From Catajapyx aquilonaris (taxonomy: Eukaryota), in assembly GCA_000934665.2 (NCBI GenBank), contig JYFJ02003968.1:1-35959 (forward strand): a stretch of 35,959 nucleotides of DNA. The letters are read 5' to 3'. The number at the start of each line of letters is the position of its first letter. Positions within the stretch are counted from its first letter, which is position 1. Below, piece by piece: positions 5,194-34,085 of this stretch. Below the pieces are notes generated by a model. That model did not search any database, had not been told where the DNA came from, and saw nothing but the letters and a program-made list of their open reading frames with translations. The position numbers and the translations under genes were made by a program.

Positions 5194-6731
5194 CTATGAT
5201 GCAGGATGAGCGATGAAAGGCAGCTTCAGGGCATCTTCTGGCAGCACGCGTTTCTCCTGCGGAAAGTAAAAGACCAGTCAGATAACATGCTCGTTTAGCA
5301 AGAATGACTGCTATACCCGGTTAAGAGTATAGGCCTAGCTACTTACAGGGTTCATTTGACAGCAGCTCCAGAGGAATTCAGCAAAACTGGCATCCTTGAT
5401 GTCACGAGGGTCGCGGATTGAACATTCCCTCTGCATCGCCCTCGCTTCACGTCCAGTGGTGCTCTTCTCCTGAAAACATACAAAAAGTCATTTTAATAGT
5501 CGATTCCATGCTATAGGCCTATAATGTGCCAGCAGATGATTTTGTAAAGTAATGCATTTACCTTCAGGCTGTACCGCTTCTTCTGGGTGTCAAAGTCATA
5601 GTACTGGTCGGCAAAGAGTGCCCCCTGCAGCATCTCGTCTGGCACTTGACCGAAGAGGTTGACCATCAGGTGCATGGCCAGCATGTCTTCCAAGGGGTCG
5701 GAGGGGGCACTTCAACCCAAAGTACATGGTGGCACACATGGCGCCCAGGGCATACACGTCGCTGGCCATCGTCACATCCGAGCCTGTAAAAAAAAGAGAG
5801 GAAAAATCATCAGTACTGTGCACTCTAATAAACACGAATGACGAATGGGGAGAAAATAAAGGGGTACTTACCGAGGTATATTTCTGGTGCACGATTAGGG
5901 AAGCTCTGAAGCATGTTGTTGCCCCTGTAGGCTGTTGAATGCTCCTTGAGCAGAGCCAGCCCAAAGTCGGTCAGCTTCACAGTCCAGTCCCTATAGGATT
6001 GATCAGGATGTTGCTCAGTTTGATGTCCGCGTGGATCACTCCCTTTGCCTGCAGAATATAAAAATTGGAATTAATGGTCAGAAAATCATCAGAATTCACA
6101 CCCCTGCACGCCCATTACTCACCTTGAGCCATCCGAGAGCAGTGAGAAGCTGCCTGGCCACGGTGGACACCTGGAGGGCCGTGAGCCTCATCTGGGGCTG
6201 CTTCTTGAGATGGAGCCACAGGTCGGTGGGCATCAGCTCCATCACCATGCAGGGGAGACCTTGATGCTCGAAGTGGTCCAGCATCTTCACGATATGGTGG
6301 TCATCCTCCACCTCTTCCTCCTTCGCCCTCTTTCTTGCTGATAGTCCAATGAATGAAGCCAACTTCTTGGTGAAGGTGATGGTGACCTTTTTCTGCAGTT
6401 CCTTCATGGCGCTGACCTCCCTGAGCCATCCGCTTTTGCAACTCTGCACCTTGAGGGCAGCCACCGCCTGCTGACCATACTGTCCAGCCTTGTCCGCCCT
6501 GCTGCACTTGTACACTTCTCCGTACCCTCCTTTGCCCAGCCGATCTCCCACGACGTATATGGCACCCCGTGAAGTATGGATCTCTTCGCGGTACGGCAAC
6601 ATCCTTCCCTTCTGCAGAAAAAGGAACAAGAAATCGGAAATTAATTAATTAATAATAAGAAAAATGAACTGCACGGAATGGACAGCACTGTATACTACAT
6701 GAGAGTATAAACTAACCTTTGCAGAAGCCAT
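5194..6731 (-). pseudogene. K1: HIPK/DYRK-like kinase pseudogene, close paralog of K7
   Basis: Exons 6731-6717 (MASAK), 6611-6123, 6048-5872, 5783-5562, 5469-5347, 5256-5194, all GT-AG. Motifs GKGGYG, AALK, HADIKLSN, DFG, QSFPNRAPE. Relative to K7 it has a 2-nt insertion at 5993-5994 (TGA at 5979-5977, before DFG) and an 11-nt deletion at about 5703-5708. Confidence 0.88.
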
Positions 6732-6933
6732 CTTCCAAATAATGAAGCTACTCTTGAAGATAAACAATAAACACTGCAAGTCTGAACCAGCACTCGGCAA
6801 CACAACCAGAGGGGAAGACAACTGCAAGGCTAGTGGGCAGTTGTCCACTTTCTTTTTCCCGCTCTAATGTATTTTTGCACTCAGAAATAGCAGGAGTGGA
6901 GGGGAAGGGGGAACTAGGGGGCGGGGCAGTTCC

Positions 6934-6969
6934 TAAAGTGGATATTTTGGAGGTGGCCTTGAAGGACAC
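6934..6969 (-). promoter_or_regulatory. Conserved proximal element of K1 containing TCAAGGCCA (NR5A-type site), next to a GC box
   Basis: 34/36 identical to 32297-32332 upstream of K7 within more diverged flanks. TCAAGGCCA at 6962-6954; ggggcgggg at about 6918-6926. Confidence 0.55.
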
Positions 6970-7208
6970 TCACTAAAAGCTGGGGGACAATAATCATATT
7001 TTCCGGAGTTTTGGGGCTTTTAGGAGGGTCGGAGAAACAAAGGATTGACACGTTGGAAGGCCATAAATGGACAATGATGGAATTATTTCCAGATATCCTA
7101 TGTCTTTGGATTCTGTTTGGATCAGTAAATATATTTTTTTCCTATATAGGCTCAAATAGATGCAATTGCATCTATTTTAGCCTATATATAGGAAAAAAAT
7201 AAATTAAA

Positions 7209-7250
7209 GTCGCCCTTTGCCTGACGATTAATCGTCAGGCAAAGGGCGAC
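7209..7250. repeat. Perfect 42-bp palindrome with no spacer
   Basis: gtcgccctttgcctgacgatt|aatcgtcaggcaaagggcgac. Confidence 0.95.
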
Positions 7251-7410
7251 GAGGATTCTTTATATATGCTTTATACAAATTAGAAGTGCTCGAGACGCTG
7301 TGAAATATTGCACTTAATGGAATATTACACGATGAATAAGTCAATTTGAATCAAATTGTTACTCTGACCAATCTCCAAATCTAGGCTTCAAGTGAGTGTA
7401 TTGTAATTAA

Positions 7411-7674
7411 CCCTGAAACCGTGCCGTGGGGTCTTTTCGGATCCGAAAGGAATTAAAATGCATTAAAATTACTATTACAATGAACTGTTTGCCAGCATTG
7501 AAAAAAGTATATATAACAAGAAGTGCTGGTTTATTTTGAATTAACGATCATTTTAGGCATTGTTCAAAGAATGATTGTATATAGTCAATATACATTGAAA
7601 GGTATTATATAAAAATTAATAAAAATTAAAATATGGTGTGGGGTCCTAAAAGACCCCACGTCAAGGCTCCATGA
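7411..7674. mobile_element. Degenerate MITE, piggyBac-like
   Basis: TTAA|CCCT left end. About 34-bp imperfect TIRs (ccctgaaaccgtgccgtggggtcttttcggatcc versus gggtcctaaaagaccccacgtcaaggctccatga). The right TTAA is not preserved. Confidence 0.45.
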
Positions 7675-7842
7675 ATTTTGTTCCCCTCTGAGGCAGAAAC
7701 CGCAAATCAAATTATTGATCAATTTAGCTGACTCACTCTGCGTTGACAGTGCTGGCTCCATAAAAATTGGCACCAATATTGATATTTATAATTGAGAAGA
7801 GAAATCAGTAGAAATTATTCCTGAGCATGAATTTCATCCGGA

Positions 7843-7882
7843 ATGAGTGTCCATAGTGTCGGGCCCGAGCTGTGACGTCACT
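7843..7882 (-). promoter_or_regulatory. Conserved distal element of K1 with a perfect CRE (TGACGTCA, 7873-7880)
   Basis: The minus strand reads gtgacgtcacagctcgggcccgacactatggacactca, homologous to gtgacgtcatctctcgggacccgacactatggcgcactca upstream of K7. Confidence 0.55.
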
Positions 7883-8019
7883 CCTCCTTTTCTTCCCATT
7901 TGCAAAATCAATTTCCCATTTATTTGGCTTTTTATTTGCAATATTGGTGTATTTACACTAACCATAACGGTGAGTAACTGGTGGAGGTATACAATCAATA
8001 ATATTTCCGCCCATTCTCT

Positions 8020-8341
8020 ATACTTTGTGTTCCATCCCCCCGACCATTGGACGAACTCAAGAGGGCTTCCATTAGCGTCTCCTCTTCCAGCCCATGAGAG
8101 GTACGCTCTTCCACCCGTGATGGCAACTGCGACTGCGCTCATCCATTATCTCCACATCGGGGGGGCCAAGTGGAAACGATGGAGTCCACTAAGGCCCCTC
8201 CCCTCCTGGGACTCTCTGTACTCAACACAGAAACCATTTCCCGAGTGGAATCTCCTGCATCAGATCCGGGAATTGAACTCAGGACCTCAGTGATTCCAAA
8301 AGGCTATGGAGATAACCACTATATACATCACAGTGCTGCCC
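8020..8341 (-). mobile_element. tRNA-derived SINE-like element
   Basis: The minus strand begins ggcagcactgtgatgtatatagtggtta (A-box-like) and continues to ggtcctgagttcaattcccgg (B-box-like), followed by a GC-rich body. The 3' boundary is approximate. Confidence 0.55.
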
Positions 8342-9129
8342 TAAGCAGACCATATTATTAAAATAAAACAGCCGGCATGGATTCAACAGTGTGCATTTAA
8401 TGTGAAATTCAAGTATCAATAGAAGTGTACAAAAAGAATAAGATTTAAACAACATTACTGCATCGACACATCAGAATAACAACAAATACAGTATGTTTCA
8501 TAGGCAGCCAGAGCAATATAGCTTTGTTTACAATAATTATTACCAACCTATTAACAAAAGGGTTGACATTCAGTAGGCTACCATGAAACATGTAATCATC
8601 ATCTTATCAATATTAAACGTGCATATTTTTTGTGCGCCAATAATTCTGATTATCAACATTCTTGTCATATAAAATCCAACCAATTGTACAAGAGTATAAG
8701 CTAAGTAAAATTCATTCCCTCACGTATTAATCAGGCATGTTCACATAAGGTCCATTGTTCAAAATATTTCAATCATATTGTTATAACATTTAATTACAAT
8801 AGTAAAACATTCTCTTCAGGAAATATGATATATCAGTCCAAAAATTGTTATGCCACATAATTTAACTTGGTGTCAAGTTTTAGAGTATTAAAAAAAATAA
8901 TTAAGGGAATGTGCATGGAATCCACTTTGTAGCACCTGTCAATGCCTACAATCGGCGAGTGGCAATTGCACATTTTCTTTTTGCAATCACATTTCATAAT
9001 GTAGCACCTTTTGCGTATATGCTAATGTCAGTAACATTAAAAACGAGAGTCACAATCACCGGACTTCAGCAGACTAGTGCTTTGCCATCAGTAATGTTCA
9101 AACAGTTCGTGCTGCGCATGCACACCTGA

Positions 9130-11230
9130 TCATTCACCTTGACATTTTTGACAATCCATGAGAGTATGAGGCTGGTCCACATGACAATGCGCAAAGCAGG
9201 GCATTTCCAAAGCCTCCTCTGGGGAGATACGCTGCTCCTGAAACAGAGAGACAAAATTTTTAGTCAATATTAGCTCAAACGGTACATTTTCTCGGAAATT
9301 CAGGCATCATGAATGAGGATCAAAAACTGACTTACCGGGTCAGGTTCCCAGAGCCTGAACAGGAGATCTGGGAACTTGCCAAGGGGGATGTGCGATGGGC
9401 TGTTTATTCCACTCTCTTCTGTTATTGCCTCTGCCCTGGTGGCATAGGAGCACTCTTCATTATCCTGCCAAAAAGAAGGGGACTTTTTAGTATATTTCTC
9501 GATATAAATCAAAGCAATAAAAAGCGGCAAAAAATTTGCATGAAGGCAATAAGCCCATGCACGCGACTGTTTAACGTATATAATAAACTGCACTTACTCT
9601 CAGGATGTACATTCCGTCGGAGTCATCATAATAGACCCCGGTGTGAGTTCCTTCTGCTAACAGATGTTGGGGGATGTCCCCGCAGAGTTTGTGAATGATG
9701 TGGAGGGTGACATTAGGTCCTTCTGGCGTCGACAGCTCGGAAGACTTGAACGGCGAAGTGTCCAGCCCGAAAACCATCTCCATTAACATACACCCGAGTG
9801 ACCAGCAATCTGCCTTTTCAGACAAATGACCACCTTTAAAGGGAGAGAGTATTGAAAATAGTGATTAATATTACAAGTAAATTAATTAGTGGTGTGATAT
9901 TGGTATTAAGACGACACTTACCGATATATACTTCTGGGGCACGGTATGGCCTCGACTGGATGGTCTGGCCTCTGAACCGGTCAGCTTCTTTGACCAGAAA
10001 GGACATTCCAAAGTCCGCCACTTTTACTCTCCATGGGCTGAAGTTTGGGTTCACTAAGACGTTTTCCATCTTAAGATCAGCATGAACCACGCCCATATCC
10101 TGATAACAGACAAAATAAAAAATTTAAATATTTGCGCATGTAATTATACTCGGTGGAGTTAAAATATATTGCATTTCTTTCATATCGGTATTATGGAAAA
10201 TTACATTTACTAAATATTTTAAAATATATTTATTTAAAACAATTGGTATATTCCAATGAAATGTTTAATTTGCAATATTTTAGTGATATTAATATACTAT
10301 AATAATTTCACTTTCTAATTTAATTCGACTTGATGGAAATATTCAACTTTGCATTTACTATATTTATGAATGTCAGTGTAACTAACTTATTCACAATTAA
10401 ACCAAGTTTTTGCGAGTCAATCTGTGCTATTATCACACGAATTAATTTTAAAAAAAATTTCAGTCTAACCTTCATCCGTTTGAGTGCAGTTAAAAGCTGC
10501 CTGGCGATGTTGGCGACCTCTCCAAGCGCGAATCTGGTCTCCTCCTGCCTGAAGAGGTATCTCCAGAGGTCAGAGGGCACGTACTCGAGCATCATGTACG
10601 GCACTCCCCGATCGACAAAGCAGCCGAGCAGACCGACTATGCTGTGATGATTACTACCACTCGAAGCTCGTGGTTCATCATCGTACTCCTGCTGCAGCAA
10701 CATCTTCATGATCATGACTTCATTCCTCCACATCTTGATCGTGCCTTGCGATTTCAAAGCAGCCAGTTCGTTCTGCTCGTTATCTTGGTGACCGGTTCTC
10801 CTCAGCATGTACACTGCTCCGTACGCGCCTTGTCCAAGCTTCATATCCACAATGTAGGTCCCAAGCGAAGTCTGGATGCGATCACGCACACAAAGACGAC
10901 CATCACCGTACGGGGGCTTCAATAACAATACGCAGGGGAAAAAATGTCAGAAAAATAGTGTACGGTATGTGCCTGCAGGTAAATCACACTGGTGGCCATA
11001 TTCACATGCCAAAAGGCGAGTGTTTACCATAACAATAATGAGATCAAAGTTAAACCACAGATATAATGTACGGTTAGACTAATTTTAAGCATGTAAACCA
11101 CCACAAATGAGGGCATGAAACTAACCTGCTCATCATCGTCTTCTCTGCGTCGCTTAATTCTTGCCACTTTCATCATGGACAGAGGCTTCTGAATAGGTCT
11201 CGACTTCCTCAATCTCTTTTGTCCCTCCAT
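9130..11230 (-). CDS. K2: HIPK/DYRK-like Ser/Thr kinase, about 400 aa, intact
   Basis: Exons 11230-11126, 10916-10470, 10099-9922, 9833-9598, 9464-9336, 9237-9130; GT-AG with consistent phases. Motifs GQGAYG, AALK, HADLKMEN, DFG, IQSRPYRAPE, DCWSLGC. Basic N-terminus (KRLRK..RIKRRR). Exon 1 is less certain than the kinase exons. Confidence 0.87.
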
Positions 11231-12559: not shown

Positions 12560-14585
12560 TTAGCGAAACATCATATTCACAAAATCCGTCTCGAGACCCT
12601 TCTTCGGAGTCAGACGAATCTCCTGCAAAAGAAAGACATTAATTAATATCTTGTTGGTCGTTGGAGCCTTTTCCAAGAATAGACTATATCAGCATGGAAA
12701 CATCATGATAAATTACTAAAAACTCATTTATTTTCATTAAGGAAATATTCAGAGAGAACGAGAAGGGGGGGGGGGGGAGAAGTCNTTTTCCACTTTAATA
12801 TAATTATGTCAATGGAGTATTCTCACAATGACACTTGATTTTGTGAACTGACAAGTGACTTACCGGATTAATATCCAGGCATCCGAATAAAAATGTCGAA
12901 AATGCAGTACCAAATGCAGGGATGAGTATGTCATTCAAACTATTCTGAATGGATATGAGACGATTGTAAGTAGGGTAACTCTGAAAAAACAGCAAAATAT
13001 CACATTAATTAAATCTATTCAGTTCAGTATGTAAGTCATAAAAATTACTACTCATTAAATACGTTAATTACTATTAAACCCCACTGATGCAACACAATGA
13101 TTGCTGATCCCACCATAAGTTCTTGTGACATAAGTGATCTTTCAAAGCGACACAAAAAAGTTTGCTCTTATTACTCTAATCCCCACAATATCATGGTGAT
13201 ATACCTTAAAGGTATAATCTCCGTAACGAGTTTTCTTGAAAAACGTTCCAGTGCACTTCCCTGCATCGAGGATCTCGCTAGGAATCCCTTTCCACACAAA
13301 CCACCAAACCTGGAGTGAATCTAATGGGTTGTAGTATTCGAACAACTCGTATCCAAATCCAAAAGTCATCATCCCACACAAGATTCCGAGGGACCACATG
13401 TCAATGGCTTCTGTGAAGGGTGCACCTGAGGAAAAAAAAAAATGAGTGCCATTGTGCGTATTAGACCTGTATGATTTGCGAAACATCTCTATATTTTTGA
13501 CCAAGTGATCATTAAACATCACACTTACCCAGAAAGATCTCAGGAGCCCTGAAGGCTGCTGCCTGAATCTGTCGCCCAACATACTTCGACACATCATTAC
13601 GGGAAATGACCGACCCGAAATCTGCCAGCTTCACTCTCACGCTATTTGCTGTCAAGTCAACGAGAATGTTGTCCGGCTTCAGGTCAGTGTGGATGATATC
13701 TTTTTCCTGAACACAAGAATTGGGGGAAATCATAATCAACAACAACAATGACAACAATATGCCAAGTATACCCAAGTGCTATAACAGCTCTCAATCCATT
13801 GCTGTGTCTACCAGAAGTCCTGTCATAAAACCATATTGAAAACCCACACCTGCCAAATTCATTCTCTTTACCTTCAGCCAATCAAGAGCCTTAAGGAGAT
13901 GCCTCATCACAGTTGAGACAGTCTCAAGGGGAAACCTTTGCCATGGCTGTCTGAGCTGGAGTGAGTAGAGGTCTCCGTCACGCATATGCTCCATCAGCAA
14001 CCCATAGACATTACCAATGTGGAACCAGCCCAGCAAATTGACAATGTTATGCTTGTCCTCCTCCCTTCGATTGCCGTGTATGTACACCCCCAGGGTTATC
14101 AAGGCTGATATCTCATTCTCCCAGGCTGTCTTTGTTTTCTGAACTTTGACCACTGCCACCTTGTGAGGTACGCTTTCGTCCAGTTGATCTGCATCTTTTC
14201 TCCTGCACCGATACACCTCCCCGAAACTGCCTGCTCCAAGCTGTACCTCCAAGTTATAATATATTCCCCTGTTGTCTCGGAACATCCTGTTGAAGAACTG
14301 GAGAGAAACATGCAACTTTTGTATTACCATGCTGCAAATAACACATGTCTGTAGTATACAGATTTTAGCACCTGGTGATGTGTCAGGAGGGATTAGAAGA
14401 AGTGCTAGGTGATGTGCTGGAATAATAATACCATGCACAAATAATGTGTTCAAGGGGAGGAAAACTGCTGTGCACTCTGATGATTTTACACCATTTACAC
14501 GCACTTTTACTGACGCTCCCGAATCCGCCCCATAGTAATTACAGTATAGCAAATCTACCACAAATGCCTTGAGCTCAGTTGACAT
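12560..14585 (-). CDS. K3: HIPK/DYRK-like Ser/Thr kinase, 340 aa if intron 1 is spliced, 430 aa if retained
   Basis: Exons 14585-14568 (MSTELK, donor GC), 14297-13872, 13706-13529, 13425-13205, 12980-12864, 12622-12560. Motifs GAGSFG, AVVK, HTDLKPDN, DFG, IQAAAFRAPE, GAPFTEAIDMWSLG. Confidence 0.85.
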
Positions 14586-15354: not shown

Positions 15355-15860
15355 GATTTGCTGCTTATAGCCAACATTGTATAGGATATCCCAAAATTTG
15401 ACATCCCATACTGAACAAAGGAGGAAACACACCAAAGTAACTCCTCATTAACTGTACACATATAATTATATATAATTTGTAAAATTAATGTAACATGTAG
15501 GCCTATATCATACCGGTCTGAAACTGCTCTGCGCCAAGATCACAGAAAAAGCTGCCGAGACCAAGAGGTTAAGTTATTATTATTATTAGCTTTCTTCTCC
15601 TGGTAACTGCAATAATTAGGTTAAAATAATAACAAATGCCAGTAACAAAATAGTTATATTTACTTGTGGAATATGAGACATGCAATCCAAGATAGGCAGT
15701 TCTAATATGAGGGAGAACTGTGGTCAATGGAACTTCTTTTGTGACCAAAGCAATGTGAGAAAATGAGAGTGACTAACTGAATTAAATTAATAGGTCTAGC
15801 CAATTGGGTCATGGTCGGGTCATTTACACAGAAGCAAGGAAAGGAACCTATAGTATTATG
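15355..15860 (-). repeat. Upstream non-coding module, copy A (5' of K3)
   Basis: Blocks ccaaaatttgacatccca, ttctcctgg(t/c)aactgcaa and gagaactgtggtcaatggaacttctttt are shared with copies B-E. Boundaries approximate. Confidence 0.75.
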
Positions 15861-17004: not shown

Positions 17005-17360
17005 CTATGCTTAGCCAACATTGTTTCCCAAAATTTGACATCCCACACAGAATAACGCCCATATTACTCCTCATTAACAATAAGGTACTTGTAAACCAAA
17101 AATGTAGCCTATATAGATAGCATACCAGTCAGATAGTCCGCAATATCTTCAAAAAGCTAACAGCACCAAGTGAGGATATAGCCTAACAGTTAGATTTCTT
17201 CTCCTGGCAACTGCAACAAAGAGAACAGAAACAACACAAAATAATGCTATATAGTAAACAAAATAGTTAGCCCTACTTGTGGAACATGAGACAAGCAATC
17301 TAAGACAGACAGTTCCGATATGAGGGGGAACTGTGGTCAATGGAACTTCTTTTGTTACCT
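17005..17360 (-). repeat. Upstream non-coding module, copy B
   Basis: ttagccaacattg..cccaaaatttgacatcccacac; ttcttctcctggcaactgcaac; cttgtggaacatgagac; ggaactgtggtcaatggaacttctttt. Confidence 0.75.
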
Positions 17361-18387: not shown

Positions 18388-20333
18388 CTACTCTGCGACA
18401 CACTTAGGATTGCGATAGACATCTTCGTAACACATCTTCACAAAAGGCAGCTCGAGGCCCTCCTTTGGAGTCAGACGAATCTCCTTCAAAAGAAAGACAT
18501 TAATAATATCTTATGGTTGTCTTATTTCCGCCAAGAATTGACCAGCATAAAAACATCATGACAAATAAGAAAAAACCAATTTAATTTAATTTAAAAAATA
18601 CGTATAGTAAAGACGGGAAGTCCCTTTCCACTTGAATAATATCATGCCGGAGTATAATTTCGCAATGAAATCCAATAACTATTATTCCAATTTAGTTCAC
18701 AATTTTGCGAACCAACAAGTGACTTACCGGATCAAGCTGCAGGCATCCGAAGAAGAACCTCGAAAAGTCATTGTCAGCTAGAGGAAGTGAATTTTTCAGG
18801 CCAGTCTGAATGGAGGAGACACGATTCAAAAAAGAGACACTTTGCTCATCCTGAAAAAGACAACAACAAAGGTATAATTAATTTAATGCTATATACGCCA
18901 AGTTTAAGTGTTTGGGACAGTGGCCTTTCAAGCTTTATTGACTAATTTTGCTAATTACGCTAATGCCCACAATATTTAATGTTTAACATTTTTTGGGTAG
19001 TTATAGAGTAGTACCTTAAATGTGTATTCCCCATGTCCAGTCTTATTGTAAAACTTTCCAGTGTGCATCCCTGCATCGAGGACCTTTATGGGAACGCCTC
19101 CGCAAACCCACGACCAAACCTTGAGTGAATCCAGAGGGTTGTAGTATGCGAAAAGCTGGCATCGAATTCCAAACGCCATAATCCCAGTAATGATGCCGAG
19201 GGACCACATGTCTATGGCTTCGCTGAAGGGTGCACCTGATGAGAAAAATAAGTGTCATTGTGCCTATATATGACATTTGGGAAACATCTTTTGACAAAAT
19301 TGGCATTGAATATCACCAATAGCTCTTTGATATCACTCTTACCCAGATGAATCTCAGGAGCCCTATAGGCTGCGGGCTGAACATTATTTCGCCTAAGATA
19401 CTTCTTCACGTCCCAACGGTGAAAGGCCCATCCGAAATCAGCGAGCTTCACTCTCAACCCTGTGTTTTCTCGCAGATCATAGAGGACATTGTTGGGCTTC
19501 AGGTCAGCGTGGATCATACGTTTTTCCTTCATCCAATCAAGAGCAGTGAGGAGTTGCCTCACCACACAGGAGACAATGTCAAGTGGGAACCTTTGCCTTG
19601 GCTGCTGGCTGCGGAGGAGTGACAATAGATCTCCGTCCATGTGCTCCATCACCAAACCATAGAAATCGCCAATGGAGAACCATCCCAGCAACTTGACAAT
19701 GTTGTGATTGTCCTCCTCGCTCCACTTGTCCTCGCCTCTCCTTTTGGGCATCCCCAGCAGGTGCAACATGGTGGTTCTCTCCTTCTCCCAGATGACCTGA
19801 CATTTCTGCACCTTGACCACCGCCACCTTGTGAGGTACGCTCTCAGCCAGCTGACCCGCGTCTGACCTCACGCACCGATATACCTCGCCAAATCGACCTG
19901 CTCCCAAGAGTTTCTCCAAGTTGTAGTCGATGCCGCCATTGCCTCGGACCACCTGTCCGATGACGCATCTGCAGTTGAAGGACTGCAGGTAAACCGTGAA
20001 AATTGTGTATTAGCATGTTACATGTGTCCACATAGGTATGTCCACACATATAAGTACATGAAAGATCACTATCTGAAACGTGGTCAGAAATCCAGACTCT
20101 CTTCGACAACACACAAAAAGTAGCCCCGCCTGGGTTTGCACAATTTAAACATTTCCCGACCAGCATCCGAACCTCAGACACTCATTTAAGAGCACAAGAG
20201 TTTGGTAGAAGAACAACTTGCATACCATGGGCTTCGTTGTCACCTTCCCGGACTGCTCTTCAATAGTCTCTGATTGATGAATTGATATCAGAAGTTTGTT
20301 GTCCCTGCTGACTTTAACACTTCGCCCTCCCAT
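18388..20333 (-). CDS. K4: HIPK/DYRK-like Ser/Thr kinase, about 395 aa, intact, five coding exons
   Basis: Exons 20333-20226, 19982-19343 (exons 2 and 3 fused), 19235-19015, 18850-18728, 18483-18388. Motifs GAGRFG, AVVK, HADLKPNN, DFG, VQPAAYRAPE, GAPFSEAIDMWSLG. Confidence 0.87.
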
Positions 20334-21439: not shown

Positions 21440-21925
21440 CAGAATAGGTTCCTTTTCATTGCTTCTGTGCAAATGACCCCATTGACCAAAACAGTATTCA
21501 TTTTGTTTTGTCGTTATCAATTTTTTAATTCAATGAAAGGTCATTACAAAAGAAGTATAGCCTACTACAGTATAATTATATTGCATTGACCACAGTTCTC
21601 CCTCGTATATTATAGGACTGCCCGTCATGGAGTATCTTGTCTCGTGGTTCACAAAAATAACGACTACTCTGTTACTATTAGCATTTGTAATTGTTGCTGT
21701 TGTTTTTGTTGCAGTTGCCAGGAGAAGATAATGATCAATAACAGTTTTTGACTGGTGCGGTCAGCTGTTAGGTTATTTTCGCTGCAGCATCAGACTGGTA
21801 TGATATCAGATACATTATTTTGCTTGCAAACTGCTTACTACTTGAAGTATGTTTCTTTGGTGATCTGCTTCTCTGCTCAGTGTGGGATGTCAAATTTCGG
21901 GATAAAATGTTGGCTAAGCATAAAA
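21440..21925 (+). repeat. Upstream non-coding module, copy D (inverted relative to A-C)
   Basis: ttgcttctgtgcaaatgaccc; cattgaccacagttctccctc; gttgcagttgccaggagaag; tctgcttctctgctcagtgtgggatgtcaaattt. Confidence 0.75.
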
Positions 21926-21976
21926 TATCCATAATTCATATTTATTTCATTTGCTACTCCCTGGCTCAATACCGTA

Positions 21977-22835: not shown

Positions 22836-22962
22836 CCTTACCGCCAATTTCTATTACCGCCAAAACTCCTGAGCGCCAATTTTCTTTACCGCCATAAGCC
22901 CTTACCGCCACTTTCCCTTCCCGCCAAAAGTCCTAACCGCCACCTATTTCCTTTCCCGCCAA
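22836..22962. repeat. Tandem array with 16-bp period and CGCCA core, 8 units
   Basis: CGCCA starts at 22842, 22858, 22874, 22890, 22906, 22922, 22938 and 22957. Confidence 0.85.
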
Positions 22963-23334
22963 TACAGGTCTCAGAGTAAGAACCTGTGCTTTACGTGTAT
23001 GTTCCTGGGCTTGGCTCAATTTTGACATTTTTGTGGGTTGACCCATTATTGCACAACACTGTCCAATTATCCCTCCACTTTCAATCACTTCTGTGTAAGT
23101 TGACTGACACCACGTTCAACATATGTACCAGACACTACACACGGGTTTGCTGCTATAAATTAATAAATAAATAACATGTTTTGATAATCTACGTAACATG
23201 TAAGGCAAAGTTTCTTCGTTTTTTTTTGTTTGCCCATGGCAACAGCATTTGTTGGTGATTACCATGAAAACAGGCTGTGCGAAGAACGGGCTCCTCTGCT
23301 GATACTATATAGATAAAGTCCAGAATAAGCTTAT

Positions 23335-23600
23335 ATAGTTTCCTTTTCCTTGCTTCTCTGTAAATGACCCGAAATGACCGAATTGACTAGACCTATTAAT
23401 TTAATTTTGTTTGTCACTCTCATTCTCTCACACTGCAATAGGTCACAAAAGATGTTCCATTGACCCACATCAGTGTTCTCCCTCACATTAAAAGTGCATA
23501 TCCAGGATGACTTGTCTCGTGTTCCACAAATAACTACTTTTTTACTGTATTATAGCATTTGCAATTGTTGGTGTTCTCTTTGTTGCAGTTGCCAGGAGAA
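23335..23600 (+). repeat. Upstream non-coding module, copy E (5' of K5)
   Basis: Colinear with the reverse complement of about 15590-15860, e.g. ctagacctattaatttaatt..gtcactctcatt..ggtcacaaaaga.gttccattgacc..gttgcagttgccaggagaa. Confidence 0.8.
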
Positions 23601-24518
23601 AAAATAATAACATAACAGTTTTTGCCTATCTGCACTATTGGTGCTGTCAGCTTAGCTGTTATAGGTGCGGAAAGAAGCATATATGAGCAGGGAAGAAGCA
23701 TATGAGAAGGGAAGAAGTTTAGTTAGAACTTGAAAATCTACAAGTTCGACGTATATCACGCAAGTGCTGCTTGACTGTGAGTTGAATCCAATACAAGTAT
23801 TGGTTTTGCTATATTACCGTGAATCCTGTGATATAGTGTTTTTGTAACAAAGCCAAAATTTCGTATCATTTGTATGAGAGCTTTAGTATTTAAATGTACT
23901 TTGTTTAACTGATTGTCCCATCATTCACATCATGTACTGCTGATTCTAATAAATAAATAAAATTATTTATTTCTGCATGTAAATAAAGATAACATAACAC
24001 TTTTTCAAAAATCGGACGCTTATGATGTGAAGGATCAGGAAGTGAGTTGAGAGTATAAGAGCACAAAATTAAAAAGAAAATCTCCGATTATGCAGATTAG
24101 GTATTTTTAATACCTATACATTTTCTTTTATTCAACTTTGTGTTCCTGAGACATTCCAGCCAGAACTTTTTCTTATTATCTTGTGGGTGATTCCAGTTTC
24201 ATTCAGAAATGATATTCTGTCAATTTTCGTATAGTATACATAGTCGTATAGTATTATTTCCTCATTGGTCATCAGTGCGAAATTTCCCAATTCATATTAT
24301 AGCAATACTATTTTCTTCTCGAAATATCGCAAGGAACGTTATCCAGAGAAGAAGTTCGCGCCACTGCTGGCAACACCCTGTATAATAACAGCCCAAACAA
24401 TATTGTCTCCTTGTGTCTTTGGCAGATTGGAGGCCGGAGTCAGCATCAGTGACATCAAAAGACAGACATCACTGTATACAGAAGGCCGGAACTGTGTTGT
24501 ACAGTATAGCCAGCGAAC

Positions 24519-26654
24519 ATGCCAACGCAGCCCAAGGTATTTGTTCCAGATTTTCTGCATTAACAATATGGGTGTCTTAGGTTCGGTCAAGCCAATACAC
24601 GTAATGTGTGTATTCATGTTTTATGGTGATAAGAACTTTGCATATTTCCTTACAGAACTTCAGAAGTGGATTGTCCATTGGACAAGTAATCAGAGCTAAT
24701 GGCTCAATCGACTACACCTTGGAGGCCCGCTTGGGAGCAGGCCGATTTGGGGAGGTGTTTACGTGCTTGATGAAAGATGCTGACCAACTGGATGAGAGTG
24801 TACCTCACAAGGTGGCAGTGGTCAAGATACAGAATAACCAGAGGTACTGGTTGCGTGAGAGAGACACCATGTCGTACCTGGGGATGCCAATCCATGATGG
24901 GAGAAGTGAGTACAGCAGGAGGAGCGAAGAGGACAAGCACAACATTGTCAAGTTGCTGGGCTGGTTTCACTTTAGTGATGTATATGGCTTGGTGATGGAG
25001 CACATGGATGGAGATCTCTGGAGACTCCTCTGCAGCCAGCCAAGCCAAAGGTTCCCACTTGAAATTGTCTCAAGTGTGGCCATGCAACTCCTGACGGCTC
25101 TCGATTGGCTGAAGGTATATAATGCATTGGGCAGATGATGGGGTTTTTCAATGCGCTTATGACACTGGATTGAGAGTTTTACTTGCTGGGTACTTCGCAT
25201 GTTGTTAAGTCCATAATATTCCCGATTTTTGTTTAATCAGACAAAAGAGGTGATCCACGCTGACCTTAAGCACGACAACGTCCTCTTTAATCTGAGAAAA
25301 AATAAAGTGCTGAGAGTGAAGCTCGCTGATTTCGGATGGGCGTTTACACGCCAGAATGTACCTGAGTATGTTGGGCGAGAAATTCAGGCCAAACCCTTCA
25401 GGGCTCCTGAGATTCACTTGGGTAAATAGGGATATTTTTCATGATTACGTATTTCGTAAAGACGTACAGAGATGTTTCTAAAATCAGACAGGTCTAATAA
25501 GCACAATGGCACTTATTTTTGTCGTCAGGTGCACCCTTCACAGAAGCCATCGACATGTGGTCCCTAGGCATCATGTGTGGCATGATGGTGTATGGAATGG
25601 ACTGCAGCCTTTTCACATTCTACAACACTCTTGATTCACTTCAGGTTTGGTCATGGATGTATGGGGAAATTCCCAGCAAGGTCCTGAATGCGGGGATGCA
25701 CACTGAAAAGTATTACGAGAAGATTGCTGATGGGGAATTCATCTTCAAGGTACGCCACAAATGATAAATACTTCGTTTTAAATATTCCAGATAGTTGGGA
25801 TTACAGTCGGTCATTGTCATAACAACTGAGGAGGATCTCTTCTTGCATAATACTCCCAGGGTCGTATGAGGCCCATACACAAAAAATGTGCTAACTTATT
25901 CAAGGAATAGTAATTTTTGATAATTTTATTTGTGTGATTATATTAATGTAATGATATTTTGTTTTTTCAGAATGAGTTTAATAATCGCCCTTCCAAGAAT
26001 CGTTTCATATCCATCCTTAATGATCTGAACCATGCCTTGCCAGTCGCAGGCGATGATTTTGGCGATTTCCTCTCCAGATGCCTGGACGTTAATCCGGTAA
26101 GTTCACAAATTATCGTGAACCTATATGTGTTGAACAATGATCATTGTGAGATTACTAATCTTTATAAAGATATTTTAGTATAGAAAGTGATTAAGAGTGG
26201 AAATGATAAAGGCTGTAAGTGCTAAAATTTTGAAGGTGAGAAGAAAGAAGCCATATATATCCATCTCTGAGACTTTTCTGAATAAATTACAGTAATTTGC
26301 ATGAACACTTAGTTATGTAACTTGTATGTCAATGATTGAAATTTTTCCTAAGATCAACAAGATATTCATAATGTCTTTCTTTTGCAGGAGGAGCGGCTGA
26401 AGCCAAATCAGGGCCTCAAGATGGCTTTTGTGAAGATGTTTCGCAGCAAGATGCCCAGGAGAATCCAAAGTGTGTCGAATAAGAGTGGGCGATTGTCCCT
26501 ATTTTCACCCAGGAGTACGGACTACGGAGTGAGAAGAACTGCTAACGAAGCCGCTAAGCTGCGTGTTTCCACAGTCACGATATGTGACGGAATGTCGACA
26601 GAGGTGCTGGATACAAGTAGTTATACCTGCTGCACATCAGCAGGGAACTACTAA
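24519..26654 (+). CDS. K5: HIPK/DYRK-like Ser/Thr kinase, about 423 aa, intact
   Basis: Exons 24519-24536 (MPTQPK), 24656-25114, 25241-25421, 25529-25749, 25971-26096, 26388-26654, all GT-AG. Motifs GAGRFG, AVVK, HADLKHDN, DFG, IQAKPFRAPE, GAPFTEAIDMWSLG. S/T/R-rich tail. Confidence 0.9.
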
Positions 26655-27246
26655 TCCAAACACGCAAGTATTACGTTAATAATGCTGCACCAGTATCACT
26701 GGATGTGGAATTTTACATATCATTGTTGCTACTGGCTACATAGGCCATATCATATCTGCTGTTTGTGAAAATCATTCTCTAGAAGTACTTTAGGTTGTTC
26801 AGTATTCAATTTGATCAGATCATATTCATACAATTGTGAAGCAGGCACTGCTGGACAGTGTGAGAATGTCTTGCGCTGTGAGACACTGTGTTGAAAAAAT
26901 GTGTTAATGTGTTAATATTTTAAGCATTAAACTTAATTAATGGTGAGTTTATAATACTTGTTGCATATTCTCCACAATGCCAGTTTGCTTCTCCTATTAT
27001 TATCAATAGGAAAAGATCATAAACTGGCATCTTTGATTTTAAGAGAACCTCTCTTACACTAAATAGTATTGCTTAAAATCTATTGTTTGTCGAGGCCTTA
27101 TTCAGTAATGCACATGCATATGTATTGTTACCACATGCAGCATGTTAATGTTCACCTGCATCGGTCCTGGGTGCATGACCTTTTTAAGCATTTTCTGCAC
27201 AGCATAATAAAAATGAGATGTTGTGCCATATTAAGTCCTTAATATG

Positions 27247-27312
27247 GCTGTCTTTTTGCCGGAGAAAATAATATACTCCTGAGTATATTATTTTCTCCGG
27301 CAAAAAGACAGC
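27247..27312. repeat. Perfect palindrome, 32-bp arms, 2-nt spacer
   Basis: gctgtctttttgccggagaaaataatatactc ct gagtatattattttctccggcaaaaagacagc. Confidence 0.95.
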
Positions 27313-28733: not shown

Positions 28734-30760
28734 CTAGAAATTACCTTGCACAAAATCCAGCTGGAGGGCAGCAGTTGGGGTCAGACGCTCTGCCTGAAAA
28801 GAGAATTACAGTTAATATACAAAAAATATTTTAAAAGGACGCACATTTAGCCCCCAAAAGGACTGCGTAAAAATATAAAGAAATGGCTTACAGGATCCAT
28901 TTTGAGGCAACCAAAGAATAGCTCGGAGAATGGCTTGTCTGTGAGATCTGACTGCTTGAAGATCTTGACCTGGTACAGAGCAGCACTTACATCCCAGACG
29001 TGCGCTGCATGATCCTGAAAAGAAAGACACACAAAATATATCATCGTGCCTTTCTTCCATCAGAGAAAAATTCCACATTTAATTATTGATATATTTTTTG
29101 ATATTTAAAAAAATATCATCACAAAAAAGAAAATAATTCGACACGCGCTTAGAACAAAAATGGCAAAATAATGCATGTTACAGCACACCCACCTTGAGCT
29201 GGTAGACTCCGTTGGCATCCTTATGGTAGTATTCTAAGGTATGGCGACCTGAGTCGAGGACTGACGCGGGGATGTTCCCACACAGCCTGGTCCAGGTGTG
29301 GAGGGTGACCAATGGGTGTTGGGGGGAGAACAGGCGAGCGTCGTACCCAAAGTACATGGAGCCACACATCATGCCCAGGGACCACATGTCTATCCCCTCG
29401 TCAAAAGGAGCACCTGCAAAATAAAGCATGTGATGGTGAATATTATGAAATATTTTACATCGAAATTTAGGACATGGTGCAGTTGAAAAAATGGTCATTT
29501 TTGGAAAGTCATTGTATCGCTAAATTGATTTGAAAACTATTATTAGAAAGCAATAACCTAATGCAATTAGTATCGTAATTAGTCTGCACACAATTGATAC
29601 AATCCCGCACCACACAGTGCACACAACCTACCAGCATAAATCTCAGGGGCTCTGTTGGGAAGTGATTGCATCTCGACGCCTTGGTAGTTGCTCATTTCAG
29701 AGGTGAAAAATGTCCATCCAAAATCAGCCACCTTGATCCTCCACGTTGGATGCATGGGATCCACCAGAATGTTGTCTAACTTCAGGTCTGCGTGGATCAT
29801 GCCTCGTTCCTTTTTTTATATTAAAAAAAAGCATTGGAAAAATGATTCATAGTGAAATAGTGCCACGGCAAATGAGAAATGAGTAGACAAAATTTTATTT
29901 GGACATCATGTAGCAGGAGACGAGACTCACCTTCATGTGCCTGAGAGCAGTGAGGATCTGCTTGGCGATGCAGGATATCTGTGGGAAGGGGAACTGCTTG
30001 TAGGGCTGGCACTCGAGGAGTTTCTCCAGGTTCATGGGCATGGACTCCAGGAGCATGCAGTAGAGGTCTCCGTGGCAGAAGGTGTCCAGTAGCTTCACCA
30101 AGTTGTGCTTCTCCGCAATATCTTCTTCGGTATTGTCTCCACTCGATGAGGCGTCTTGGCTGCTGCTGGACCCCCCACCCATCATCATGTTCTCTAGCAC
30201 TTTTTCCGAGGTTTGCAGGTAAAGCATGGCCCTGCTCTCATGCACGCACATCTCCTTGTCCTTCTGCACCTTCAGCACCGCCAGGGTGTCACAATCCACT
30301 CCCTTTTCGACTATCTTCATGCAGCGGTAAGCGACTCCGAATGTCCCCGACCCCAGCTCTGCAATCAGGGAGAAAGTTTCTCCTTTGGAAGTCCGGACAT
30401 CATCTCCGATCCGGAGCGCACTCTTCCAGTTCTGCAATTAGTACAGCAGGAAAAAAAGGACCCATTTTTAGTCATCATATTTCGGTCTATTATGTTCACT
30501 ACACTATCGCATAATAACAGTGGACACAACTGTGGTGTATATGAGAAATAAAGTGCAAAAAATAGTGCAGCCAACTTTCTTCGATCAGAATTTAATATAA
30601 CTTACTATATAGTAGACCTATTTGCACTTTAAGAGACATGCTTTAATTACGGCATCCACCGCAATAATTACGAAGCAATGCTGTGATTATTCGCAAACGC
30701 ACACACACTCTTTCTCATCAAATAACTAACCTTTTCGCCGTTCTTCGTCGACGCCGCCAT
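28734..30760 (-). CDS. K6: HIPK/DYRK-like Ser/Thr kinase, about 370 aa, intact
   Basis: Exons 30760-30731 (MAASTKNGEK|gttagt, compare MAAGK|gttagt in K7), 30431-29931, 29809-29632, 29413-29193, 29014-28892, 28793-28734. Motifs GSGTFG, AVLK, HADLKLDN, DFG, MQSLPNRAPE, GAPFDEGIDMWSLG. The start codon is less certain. Confidence 0.87.
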
Positions 30761-31286
30761 GCTGTCGCCTTCTCTCTTCGTGTGTTCACCTGGAGATAAC
30801 AGGGACGTGGTGTGTCCGGATGACCTGTGTTGACGCCAACCAGAGATGCTGTCGGCGACTGAGAGACCCGATGGATGTCCTCCTTCTGAATAGATGAATG
30901 GCAACCCGTGTGCTTTCGTATGGATAGGATGGGGCGTGGAAGGATATGGGACACACGTCTGGGCCTGACCAGCTCTCCTCCAGCAATAGCAGGACTATCG
31001 GTGATGGACGGAGCTGTTGAGGAAGAGTGACCAAAGTGGTGGCAAAGGTGGCTCCCAGTTGTGGGATTAATATTAGCCTCGAGGGGGTTGGAGGGGTGCA
31101 CGGAGCCTTGAGCCATCCAAGTGCCATCAAGGCTCCGTGGGAGGGGTGAGTCTGGGGAAAGCCCAAAAGTAGCTTGTACCACATTTGTAGCCGCCTTTTC
31201 TCGCAGATTATAATCCTCCAAACTGACCCTTGTCGCCCATCAGATAAGCTCACACCAGCAGGCCCGCCTGTGTGATACACACTCAC

Positions 31287-31358
31287 CCGCCTTTTCTTCC
31301 AGTTTCGAAGGTGCTTAATCCCTTTGTCATATTTTGGTTGACTTTTGGTGTATTTATA
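31287..31358 (-). promoter_or_regulatory. Candidate TATA box and short first exon for K6
   Basis: TATAAATA at 31358-31351, donor GG|GTGAGT after 31287, and a candidate acceptor ttatctccag|g giving an exon start at 30789, just upstream of the K6 ATG. Confidence 0.4.
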
Positions 31359-31962
31359 GTCAGGGGATTAACCACCGCGCCGGTCGCATGAAAATTATAT
31401 ATAAATAGTTGAGCTTAATTACGGCGTTAGTCTGTTATACAGTATAATGCAATGAAAATGTACGGTTATGAATATTCATGCCACATAATAAATGTCGCGA
31501 ATATTTCAGAGCAAAATTAAAACATTTTCTGCGATTCGGATGGTAAGCATGTAGTATAGTCCGAGGTATTAGTTTTGTAAGCGACATGCACTAATAAGAA
31601 ACTTGTTTGTTATTGTTTCATGTTTTCTCTCCGAATCCCCGTTTTTGTCATTCGCGTGCTATTACTCATCTTTTGGAACCAAAATTTTTAGAGCTTAAAT
31701 TAAAACAGATGCATCACAATTGCATGGCTCTATTCTGTCGGATATAGAGATGGTGTTGCAAAAATGTCTAAAACGGTTTTTAAAAGCTGACTGCATGTAT
31801 CCGCGTATGCTTCCCAGCAGATGAAGAGGATTTTCAAATAAAATAAGCGGTCAAAAATATATGTGTTGAACTAGAAGAATGAATAGGAGGACCGTATCCT
31901 CCGCCATTGCCCATTTCACCCCAACCAGTCAAGAGCAGTCTCAGGAAGGGGAGGGTAGCCGC

Positions 31963-32003
31963 AGTGACGTCATCTCTCGGACCCGACACTATGGCGCACT
32001 CAA
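31963..32003 (+). promoter_or_regulatory. Conserved distal element of K7 with a perfect CRE (31965-31972), between the divergent K6 and K7
   Basis: Homologous to 7843-7882 upstream of K1. Confidence 0.55.
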
Positions 32004-32296
32004 TCCTGCTCAAATTAATGCCGTATTTTCTCTTTTTCATAAATTGTTTGGTGGCACATAAATAATAACTTTTTAAAATGCAACTGTTATAATGCTGGAG
32101 CAATTACAGACCCCTTACAATGCTTGATAATATTGGATCCAAGAAGGTAAAATTAATTTTTAATTCCATCAGTGTACTGTACGTTTCAAGTCGGCATTTC
32201 CTAACTGCCTTCCAAAGTGTCATTCCCATTGTCTTTTACAAACTCCTCCCAAAAGCTTCAACAATCCCGACTAAAATGTGACTCAAACCCGCGTGG

Positions 32297-32332
32297 GTGT
32301 CCTTCAAGGTCACATCCAAAATATCCACTTTA
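32297..32332 (+). promoter_or_regulatory. Conserved proximal element of K7 with TCAAGGTCA (NR5A/ERR/GCNF extended half-site, 32304-32312)
   Basis: 34/36 identical to the reverse complement of 6934-6969. Confidence 0.55.
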
Positions 32333-32542
32333 TCTGATTGACCACCCCTCGTCCCCTCTTCCTATGGCCAAACCTGCTTTTTCTTGGTGCAAAGCAGCCG
32401 AGGGAGAAAAGTGAAAGGTTTTCTTGGCAATTACCACAAGCTTTGCAGTTGTCCTTTACCTGCTGCTGTGGTGCCGTGTGAAGAGTGGGGGTGGACATTT
32501 CATATTTCTCTTCAACATCCACCAGTTGCTTCAATTTGGAAG

Positions 32543-34085
32543 ATGGCTGCTGGAAAGGTTAGTTTACTCCTTTCATGCACGATATATACGTATATAGTGT
32601 AGGGTTTGTATCTCGTATTAAATAATTTGATCTTTGTTCCTTTTTCTGCAGAAAGGATGGATGTTGCCGTACCGCGAAGAGATCCATACTTCACGGGGGG
32701 CCACATACGTCGTGGGAGATTGTCTGGGCAGAGGAGGGTTCGGAGAAGTGTACAAATGCGGCAGGGCGGACAATGCTGGACAGTACGGTCAGCAGACGGT
32801 GGCTGCCCTCAAGGTTCAGTACAGCCCCAACGGATGGCTCAGGGAAGTCAGCGCCATGAAGGAACTGCAGAAAAAGGTCAACAACACCACCAGCAGCTTC
32901 ACCAAGAAGTTGGGCTCGTTCTTTGGACTATCAGCATCAGGAGAGAGAGCGGAGGAGGAAGAGGTGGAGGATGACCACCATATCGTGAAGATGCTGGACC
33001 ACTTCCAGCATCGAGGTCTCCACTACATGGTGATGGAGCTGATGCCCACCGACCTGTGGCTGCACCTCAGGAAGCAGCCCCAAATGAGGTTCACGGCCCT
33101 CCAGGTGTCCACCGTGGCCAGGCAGCTTCTCACTGCTCTCGGATGGCTCAAGGTGAGAAATGGGCGTGCGGGGGTGTGAATTCTGATAATTTTCTGACCA
33201 TTAATTCCAATTTTTATATTCTGCAGGAAAAGGGAGTGATCCACGCGGACATCAAACTGAGCAACATTTTGATCAATCCCAGGGATTGGACAGTGAAACT
33301 GACCGACTTTGGACTGGCGCTGTTTAAGCAGTCTGCATCTAACTACAGGGGTAAAAACCAGCTTCAGAGCTTCCCTAATCGTGCACCTGAAATATATCTT
33401 GGTACGTACTCTCGTTACTCTCTCCACATTCATGTAGGCCTATTGGGGTGCACATCACTGATTATTTTTTCTTCCTTTTAAAAAAGGCGCGGATGTGACA
33501 ATGGCCAGCGACGTGTATGCCCTGGGCGCCATGTGTGGCACGATGTACTTTGGGTTGAAGTGCCCCATCTTCGCCCCCTCCGTTCCCTTGGAAGACATGT
33601 TCGCCATGCACCTGATGGTCCACCTCTTCGGTCAAGTGCCTGACGAGATGCTGCGGGGGGCACTCTTTGCCGACCAGTACTACGACTTTGACACCCAGAA
33701 GAAGCGGTACAGCCTCAAGGTAAATGCGTTACTTTACAAAATCACCTGCTGGCACATTATAGGCCTATAGCATGGAATCGACTATTAAAATGACTTTTTG
33801 TATGTTTTCAGGAGAAGAGCACCACTGGACGTGAAGCGAGGGCGATGCAGAGGGAATGTTCAATCCGCGACCCTCGTGACATCAAGGATGCCAGTTTTGC
33901 TGAATTCCTCTGGAGCTGCTGTCAAATGAACCCTGTAAGTAGGACTATACTCTTAACCGGGTATAGCAAGTAGTCAGTTGCTAAACGAGCATGTGATCTG
34001 ATTGGTCTTTTATATTCCGCAGGAGAAACGCGTGCTGCCAGAAGATGCCCTGAAGATGCCTTTCATCGCTCATCCTGTATCATAG
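32543..34085 (+). CDS. K7: HIPK/DYRK-like Ser/Thr kinase, about 369 aa, intact
   Basis: Exons 32543-32557 (MAAGK), 32652-33152, 33227-33401, 33487-33719, 33812-33934, 34023-34085, all GT-AG. Motifs GRGGFG, AALK, HADIKLSN, DFG, LQSFPNRAPE, SDVYALG. Confidence 0.9.

Follow-up and report, generated by a model that had tools for sequence, protein, structure and literature searches.

A local cluster of seven divergent, kinase-domain-only genes of the DYRK/HIPK family

Main features of the cluster

We have analysed a stretch of DNA of 35,959 nt (contig JYFJ02003968.1 of assembly GCA_000934665.2, deposited under Catajapyx aquilonaris), which we will call the window; in our reading its DNA is that of a teleost-like fish. 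Seven paralogous kinase genes, K1 to K7, are found in positions 5194–34085. In our reading they form a local cluster of CMGC kinases of the DYRK/HIPK family, limited to the kinase domain: six of them would be kept by selection and K1 is a decaying copy. The six intact genes would represent a single, very divergent clade, which stands beside a teleost-wide radiation of stand-alone or tandem kinases named 'HIPK1-like' or uncharacterized. We give this reading a probability of about 0.8. The teleost-wide radiation is already present in public annotation and has apparently never been studied. An initial annotation, made from the letters of this DNA, had proposed a lineage-specific kinase family: this may be kept for the branch found in the window, which looks lineage-specific from its sequence (at most 33% identity to the proteins compared), but not for the broader set, which is teleost-wide.

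Gene organization

The genes were located from stop-to-stop frames and three-frame reading. Position 5194 is the final base of the K1 stop codon and 34085 the final base of the K7 stop codon; the limits and the number of paralogs are those of the initial annotation. To build the gene models we anchored the conserved motifs and looked for AG acceptors and GT donors in frame; a single consistent model resulted for each locus. Exon A goes from the N-terminus to W/H/R-x-K. Exon B covers HxD, DFG and APEIxx and ends one base into a Gly codon. Exon C starts at (G)APF-x-EAIDMWSLG, includes the CMGC insert and reaches Y/F-x-L/F-K/R; exon D ends at D/N-P; exon E contains E-x-R-L/V/I-x-P and continues to the stop codon. 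The predicted introns between exons A and E are GT-AG in all 27 cases, with lengths of 74–370 nt.

The intron phases are also those first described: phase 0 after W/H/R-x-K, phase 1 in the Gly codon of APEIxxG, phase 0 after Y/F-x-L/F-K/R and phase 0 after D/N-P. All four positions are shared by six of the seven genes, not by the whole set: K4 shares three of them and lacks the one after W-x-K. The models are as follows.

K1, 5194..6731, minus strand, pseudogene: exons A 6611-6123, B 6048-5872, C 5783-5562, D 5469-5347, E 5256-5194
K1 putative exon 1, 6731-6717, minus strand: MASAK
K2, 9130..11230, minus strand, intact: exons A 10916-10470, B 10099-9922, C 9833-9598, D 9464-9336, E 9237-9130; open for 365 aa from exon A, all predicted splice sites GT-AG, all catalytic motifs present
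K2 putative exon 1, 11230-11126, minus strand: 35 codons, with a basic stretch KVARIKRRRE
K3, 12560..14585, minus strand, intact from exon A: exons A 14297-13872, B 13706-13529, C 13425-13205, D 12980-12864, E 12622-12560
K3 putative exon 1, 14585-14568, minus strand: MSTELK, with a GC donor
K4, 18388..20247, minus strand, intact: exons A and B fused 19982-19343, C 19235-19015, D 18850-18728, E 18483-18388
K4 homologous mini exon 1, about 20240, minus strand: GTG where K3 and K5 have ATG; an ATG is the last codon before the donor GTATGC
K5, 24519..26654, plus strand, intact: exons A 24656-25114, B 25241-25421, C 25529-25749, D 25971-26096, E 26388-26654; after the kinase domain a C-terminal tail of about 70 aa, the longest among the copies
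K5 exon 1, 24519-24536, plus strand: MPTQPK
K6, 28734..30760, minus strand, intact: exons A 30431-29931, B 29809-29632, C 29413-29193, D 29014-28892, E 28793-28734; Ser/Gly/acidic insert between alphaC and beta4
K6 putative exon 1, 30760-30731, minus strand: MAASTKNGEK
K7, 32543..34085, plus strand, intact: exons A 32652-33152, B 33227-33401, C 33487-33719, D 33812-33934, E 34023-34085
K7 exon 1, 32543-32557, plus strand: MAAGK

When the putative first exons (1–35 codons) are included, the products have 340–423 aa, the lengths originally reported. In K1, K6 and K7 the putative first exon has an ATG in good Kozak context followed by AAG|GTTAGT; K3, K4 and K5 have a common first exon of six codons. 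The proteins have about 20–50 residues before the Gly loop and their frames end 15–90 residues after the kinase domain (subdomain XI). No further downstream coding exon or Pfam domain was found in the window, and the poly(A)-signal hexamers 3' of the stop codons were uninformative. An eighth copy or relic was also searched for in the window by tblastn with the six intact proteins and none was found: there are 39 matches outside the exons, the best with E 0.13.

Intactness and selection

The frames of K2–K7 are open for 334–417 codons from exon A. All six genes keep GxGxxG, the beta3 Lys, the alphaC Glu, HxDxKxxN, DFG, APE, the alphaF Asp and the Arg of subdomain XI, in agreement with the six intact copies that had been proposed. 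K1 is broken. Compared with K7 it has an insertion of 2 bp near 5995, in exon B, and a deletion of 11 bp near 5709, in exon C; the shifted stretch has four in-frame stop codons and the region from DFG to APE is out of frame.

We simulated random substitution at half of the observed pairwise divergence: an open frame was left in 0–0.34% of 5000 copies of each gene. The presence of six open genes against such a low survival argues for selection. K2–K7 are thus probably maintained as real, functional genes, as far as their sequence can tell.

The ratio of nonsynonymous to synonymous changes (dN/dS) was calculated by the pairwise Nei-Gojobori method and in sliding windows of 30 codons. Among K3, K4 and K5, with dS 0.53–0.77, dN/dS is 0.38–0.57, and so it is not near 1 throughout, part of the outcome that the initial annotation had named as contrary to its proposal. 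For every other pair of genes saturation is complete or almost complete (dS above 1.2 or undefined). Along the sequence the ratio is below 1 in 23 of 26 sliding windows, with a minimum of 0.23 around the catalytic beta3 Lys and the hinge; it approaches 1 in the alphaC-beta4 insert and in the C-terminal tail.

Placement among the CMGC kinases

Pkinase (PF00069) is the sole Pfam family seen. It matches the exon A frames of all seven genes, six of them above the cut-off of 31.7 bits: the fused A+B frame of K4 (265 aa) has 83.7 bits and exon A of K1, K2, K3, K5 and K7 has 32.0–40.3 bits, while exon A of K6 alone stays below it, with 27.3 bits. A search of the PDB with single sequences was unspecific: the best E value was 1e-13 and CDPK1, HIPK2/3, CDK12 and DYRK2 came close together.

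Profiles made from the paralogs separate the kinases better by segment. With the N-lobe profile only HIPK3 (1e-13) and HIPK2 (2.3e-13 and 2.5e-13) fall below 1e-10. The exon B profile finds HIPK2/3 at 3–5e-13, followed by CASK (9.5e-10) and DYRK2 (2.7e-9). The exon C profile finds DYRK1A (9e-10), DYRK1B (1.4e-8) and HIPK2 (9e-6), then PRP4 and CLK; it aligns end to end with residues 203–272 of DYRK1A, CMGC insert included, over 72 of its 73 positions. With HIPK first in two of the three segments, the ranking places the window genes, on sequence grounds, as CMGC kinases of the DYRK/HIPK family, with more HIPK than DYRK character. An origin on the HIPK side is slightly favoured over one on the DYRK side.

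The solved structures nearest to the N-lobe and to the catalytic and activation segment are thus those of HIPK2 (7ncf, 6p5s) and HIPK3 (7o7i). Three features are common to HIPK1/2/3 and the window genes: APE is followed by PF-x-EAIDMWSLG, the Gly loop by V-x-K/R-C, and the CMGC insert ends in aromatic-x-L/F-K. The HIPK-like strings pointed out in the initial annotation are unevenly distributed: PF(S/T/D)E(A/G)IDMWSLG is present in K3–K6, HxDLKPxN in K3 and K4 only, and QSR in K2 only. The differences are also large, since identity with canonical HIPKs is 27–30%. The canonical HIPKs that we recovered have about 800–2000 aa, mostly 1100–2000, with long C-terminal regions, whereas the window proteins have the kinase domain only. 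The long C-terminal part of HIPK1-3 contains homeobox-interacting, PEST and Tyr/His-rich regions. Among the solved structures, exon C (alphaF to CMGC insert) is matched best by the class I DYRKs, DYRK1A and DYRK1B, but the window genes lack their Y-x-Y motif and are closer to HIPK in the N-lobe and catalytic segment. DYRKs proper have a DYRK-homology (DH) box N-terminal to the kinase domain; the window proteins would have no room for such a region.

For the phylogenetic trees the kinase domains were cut with a profile of K2–K7 and dropped if they covered fewer than 200 profile positions or scored below 50 bits; K1, being a pseudogene, was excluded. We used 69 hand-picked rows for a quick tree and 47 for a careful one (LG+C20+F+G4 with posterior mean site frequencies, PMSF), with two distant outgroups only, MAPK15-like and CDPK-like. 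The six intact genes form one clade with support 100/98, in the order K2, K7, K6, K3/K4/K5; in this tree they do not resolve as separate orthologs of named kinases, the result against which the initial annotation had set its proposal. Support is 100/99 for K3–K5 and 98/94 for K6 with K3–K5. The four branches originally suggested, K1/K7, K2, K3/K4/K5 and K6, are recovered, K1 standing outside the trees. A goby/flatfish group is the next branch: the split formed by the window genes, the four rows of this group and the two outgroups has support 95/87. HIPK appears as paraphyletic to the DYRK-like clade. We read this paraphyly and the placement of the outgroups as rooting and long-branch artefacts. 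The description as a stripped-down HIPK-related family stands at the level of the DYRK/HIPK family, while phylogeny does not decide between HIPK and DYRK parentage.

Activation loop and inserts

The loop S/N-T-Y-LQSRYY is present in all the canonical HIPKs tallied, about 150, and DYRK-like proteins have Y-x-Y-IQSRFY; every one of these loops retains its Tyr. The window genes have replaced it: the equivalent position in K2–K7 is occupied by T, Q, N, E, E and Q. Fish proteins of the related set have also lost it. Four to five residues upstream of the lost Tyr there is another Tyr (Phe in K2), which is conserved in the window genes.

The two Arg of QSR-x-x-R bind the phosphotyrosine in DYRK1A; a changed mode of activation fits the absence of the Tyr together with the first Arg of QSR. 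As judged from the conserved motifs, K2–K7 are most likely active Ser/Thr kinases. They would probably not use the classical tyrosine autoactivation step of DYRK and HIPK, because the Tyr is lost and so is the first Arg of QSR in all but K2. The conserved upstream Tyr or Phe may act as a substitute.

Other features distinguish the window genes from canonical HIPKs: an insert of 3–5 residues between beta2 and beta3, a variable insert of 5–45 residues between alphaC and beta4, often acidic or rich in Ser, and a shortened stretch after the CMGC insert.

Relatives in fishes

A word-indexed protein search with the K4 frame gave only one related protein among 340 candidates, a protist-like DYRK-type kinase with 28% identity, and the ESM Atlas gave only generic kinase clusters. 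The N-lobe profile was more productive. An exhaustive HMMER search against 1.84 billion representative sequences gave 6009 matches at or below 1e-3, 195 at or below 1e-10 and one at or below 1e-30. Among the 30 matches looked up out of the 150 listed, the best are teleost proteins, either with a single kinase domain or with 2–4 of them. They come from Nothobranchius, Notolabrus, Chaenocephalus, Oryzias, Anabas, Oreochromis, Maylandia, Seriola, Mugilogobius and Periophthalmus, and they are named 'uncharacterized', 'protein kinase domain-containing' or 'HIPK1-like', in one case 'ribosomal protein S6 kinase 2 beta-like'. The second group comprises canonical invertebrate HIPKs and the third DYRK-like proteins from protists, fungi or animals.

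Representatives of the teleost set are Mugilogobius chulae KAK7921964.1, Paralichthys olivaceus P0207, Nothobranchius furzeri XP_054596643 and Chaenocephalus aceratus KAI4812359. A search with the goby protein P0112 found flatfish 'HIPK1-like/HIPK2-like' proteins of 295–429 aa, with 42–44% identity to it. The kinase domain of a flatworm HIPK3 found cichlid HIPK3 and multi-domain fish proteins (stickleback, tilapia, Centropristis and Denticeps). Like the window genes, the teleost set includes single domains of 295–429 aa, lacks the canonical activation-loop Tyr and shows tandem arrays and species-specific copies. Unlike them, it lacks the beta2-beta3 and alphaC-beta4 inserts and has a longer region after the CMGC insert. 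Furthermore, many of its predictions have 2–4 kinase domains per polypeptide, whereas the window genes are separate and lie on both strands.

Several of the multi-domain proteins deserve mention. P0009 (Logan, 944 aa, contig of 3267 nt) and P0006 (ENA, 1208 aa, contig of 3932 nt) have 2–3 kinase domains in an uninterrupted frame which practically fills the contig; therefore some multi-kinase polypeptides of fishes may be real transcripts and not fused predictions. The P0011 cluster of Chaenocephalus aceratus, with 17 members of at least 90% identity, points to a very recent dispersal of a two-domain member. P0269 (Denticeps clupeoides, 989 aa) has two near-identical kinase domains and groups with HIPK and DYRK, not with the other fish genes: it shows that two-domain fish kinase genes also exist outside the spiny-rayed fishes. 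Finally, P0005, a top match of the N-lobe search (863 aa, three N-lobe matches), was deposited as 'protein kinase [Thermodesulfobacteriota bacterium]' and may be a eukaryotic contamination of a metagenome bin; a scan of genome contigs for it gave 24 pattern matches, none of them confirmed.

In the full-text literature we have found no study that describes a stand-alone HIPK-like family of teleosts, only incidental mentions. A passage on anglerfish reports an expanded 'HIPK family' and ties it to eye size (PMC7729161), and one on marine medaka counts 'Hipk1' among the families unique to this species (PMC7493909). As far as these passages go, such expansions and species-unique families would be explained by the stand-alone family, and their attribution to canonical HIPK biology (eye size, apoptosis) is probably a misassignment.

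Evolution of the cluster

Comparison of the window with itself gives 16 repeat pairs. K1 and K7 are inverted duplicates: 5155–6649 and 32617–34124 are 89.4% identical over 1523 bp. The DNA of K3, K4 and K5 can be aligned with 73–78% identity; K2 and K6 are too diverged for such an alignment. Identity between K1 and K7 is not uniform. It is very high in exon D (123/123), intron C (90/92) and intron A (71/74), and lower in exon B (149/175) and in intron B (60/84, 71%). This mosaic is probably best explained by patchy gene conversion between K7, as the active gene, and the pseudogene K1.

K4 alone has lost an intron: the 126-nt first intron of K5 is precisely absent from K4 in the DNA alignment (19343–19982 compared with 24656–25421). 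The usual explanation of a precise intron loss is recombination with a reverse-transcribed mRNA, and because of this the loss in K4 may hint at germ-line transcription. The cluster would thus have grown by tandem and inverted duplication, with gene conversion between K1 and K7, the death of K1 and one precise intron loss. The birth-and-death expansion of the initial annotation agrees well with these features: duplicates on both strands, an inverted pair with mosaic identity, one dead copy and one lost intron.

Alternative explanations

Several points weigh against our reading. Transcription and all splice junctions are predictions from the assembly sequence, which is also the basis for the frameshifts of K1, and the first exons and start codons are predicted only and uncertain, as it is apparent from the GC donor of K3 and the shifted ATG of K4. 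A dN/dS of 0.4–0.6 is high for a kinase and also fits partial relaxation. The trees were built without HIPK4 and without vertebrate DYRK1-4, CLK and PRP4. In the free tree the window clade is found beside the long outgroup branches, where long-branch attraction is likely. The approximately unbiased (AU) test does not reject either grouping: a clade of window genes, fish genes and HIPK costs 15.2 log-likelihood units (p 0.152) and one with DYRK instead costs 17.8 (p 0.112), so that the tree does not tie the window genes to HIPK. The relation with the fish kinases is also weak, as it depends on the N-lobe ranking and on the single 95/87 split: when K2–K7 were compared by BLASTP with the 369 proteins collected from the searches, no identity exceeded 33% and the fish family, HIPK and DYRK-like proteins scored alike. 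In identity to the window genes (27–33%) the fish kinases do not surpass canonical HIPKs or DYRK-like proteins, and a full-length profile also gives similar scores to both groups.

The cluster might be considered evolutionary debris, duplicated kinase pseudogenes which only appear intact. K1 is demonstrably broken, dN/dS is high, the first-exon donor of K3 is GC and K4 has lost the ancestral ATG. We find this very improbable: six of the seven frames, of 334–417 codons, have stayed open across 27–50% nucleotide divergence, a fate of at most 0.34% of the simulated copies; all splice sites from A to E and every catalytic residue are retained, and dN/dS falls to 0.23 at the catalytic Lys and hinge, with values below 1 in 23 of 26 sliding windows. 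The true pseudogene K1, on the contrary, has gained two frameshifts at only about 10% divergence. It is scarcely credible that a transposon or an integrated virus carries the kinase genes as cargo, a transport that would account for multi-copy dispersal in other fishes. Such an origin would suit the 17 members of the two-domain Chaenocephalus aceratus cluster, at 90% identity on at least six large scaffolds, as well as the short repeats interspersed between the window genes. Nevertheless, the 16 longest non-kinase frames of the window contain no Pfam family, with a single weak match to HHH_2 (E 0.049), and no transposase, integrase, reverse transcriptase or capsid is found among them. Moreover, the duplicated DNA is confined to the genes themselves, and the age and divergence of the copies, whose spliceosomal introns are conserved, also speak against such an origin.

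The parentage within the family leaves room for two other proposals. A descent from a DYRK-type (DYRK1-like) kinase, with HIPK-like strings that are convergent or ancestral to the DYRK family, seems doubtful to us. It has in its favour the exon C profile, which matches DYRK1A four orders of magnitude better than HIPK2, and the region after the CMGC insert, approximately as short as in the DYRK4 row and 17–25 residues shorter than in HIPKs; the clade with fish genes and DYRK also survives the AU test. It is opposed by the N-lobe and exon B profiles, which rank HIPK2/3 first with clear margins, and by PF-x-EAIDMWSLG and the Cys after the Gly loop, which are common to the HIPK rows and absent from the DYRK4 row. 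The goby/flatfish relatives were named HIPK1/2-like by the NCBI pipeline, and the Y-x-Y-IQSRFY of the DYRK-like rows is found in no window gene.

The other proposal is that the window genes are teleost co-orthologs of HIPK4, which is short and testis-specific, radiated in fishes with a role in spermatogenesis. HIPK4 has a length of about 600 aa, compared with 340–423 aa in the window. We have compared it by description only. The relevant passages of PMC7067585 describe a short HIPK, with neither the homeobox-interacting domain nor a nuclear localisation signal, whose activation requires Y175. A mutagenesis primer given there encodes R-Y-V-K-E-P-(Y175)-I-Q-S-R-F-Y, with a second Tyr five residues upstream of Y175: this spacing is the same in K4 and K7 and differs by one residue in K3, K5 and K6 (PMC7067585). 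A role in the gonads would also suit the precise intron loss of K4, which suggests a germ-line mRNA. In the passages available, 'Hipk1l' is 9 log2-fold higher in seabream ovotestis than in testis (PMC7378800) and hipk1/2/3 are up in filefish testis, with the same cited for a sleeper goby (PMC12837544); these transcripts may belong to the family. Yet Y175, on which HIPK4 depends, is absent in all the window genes, and a HIPK4-like loop is found in none of the 369 collected proteins. We regard co-orthology with HIPK4 as unlikely.

Our preferred reading remains that of a divergent DYRK/HIPK clade beside a teleost radiation. We may speculate further that teleosts have a large, fast-evolving radiation of stand-alone kinases of HIPK type, possibly a counterpart of the testis-specific HIPK4, which works without tyrosine auto-activation; that sexual or genomic conflict in germ cells or, alternatively, an immune arms race drives its turnover through gene birth and death, conversion and retro-mediated loss of introns; and that the window contains a private branch of it, with at most 33% identity to any public protein. 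Such an extended scheme is unlikely in our view.

Kinases of the HIPK and DYRK types are regulators which usually evolve slowly, exist in few copies and have elaborate regions outside the catalytic domain. If our reading is confirmed, we would have a vertebrate lineage where the kinase domain by itself has been duplicated again and again and has diverged below 33% identity, with loss of the activation-loop tyrosine switch which defines the family: a natural experiment on the activation and retargeting of CMGC kinases. It would also be a second teleost case of explosive growth of a kinase family, beside the PIM-related genes. In zebrafish the PIM-related kinases are a large lineage-specific expansion of kinase-domain-only genes. 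The similarity is an analogy only: they are CAMK/PIM and not CMGC kinases, unrelated by descent.

Other sequence features of the window

The GC content of the window is about 38–48%, and it has a single N at 12785, inside intron D of K3. A long trinucleotide microsatellite is found at 163–365; depending on the frame it would be read as poly-His, poly-Ser or poly-Ile. The spacers between the genes contain a short repeat of about 100–200 bp, 82–87% identical and in both orientations, at 15641–15852, 17253–17359, 21636–21750 and 23334–23624.

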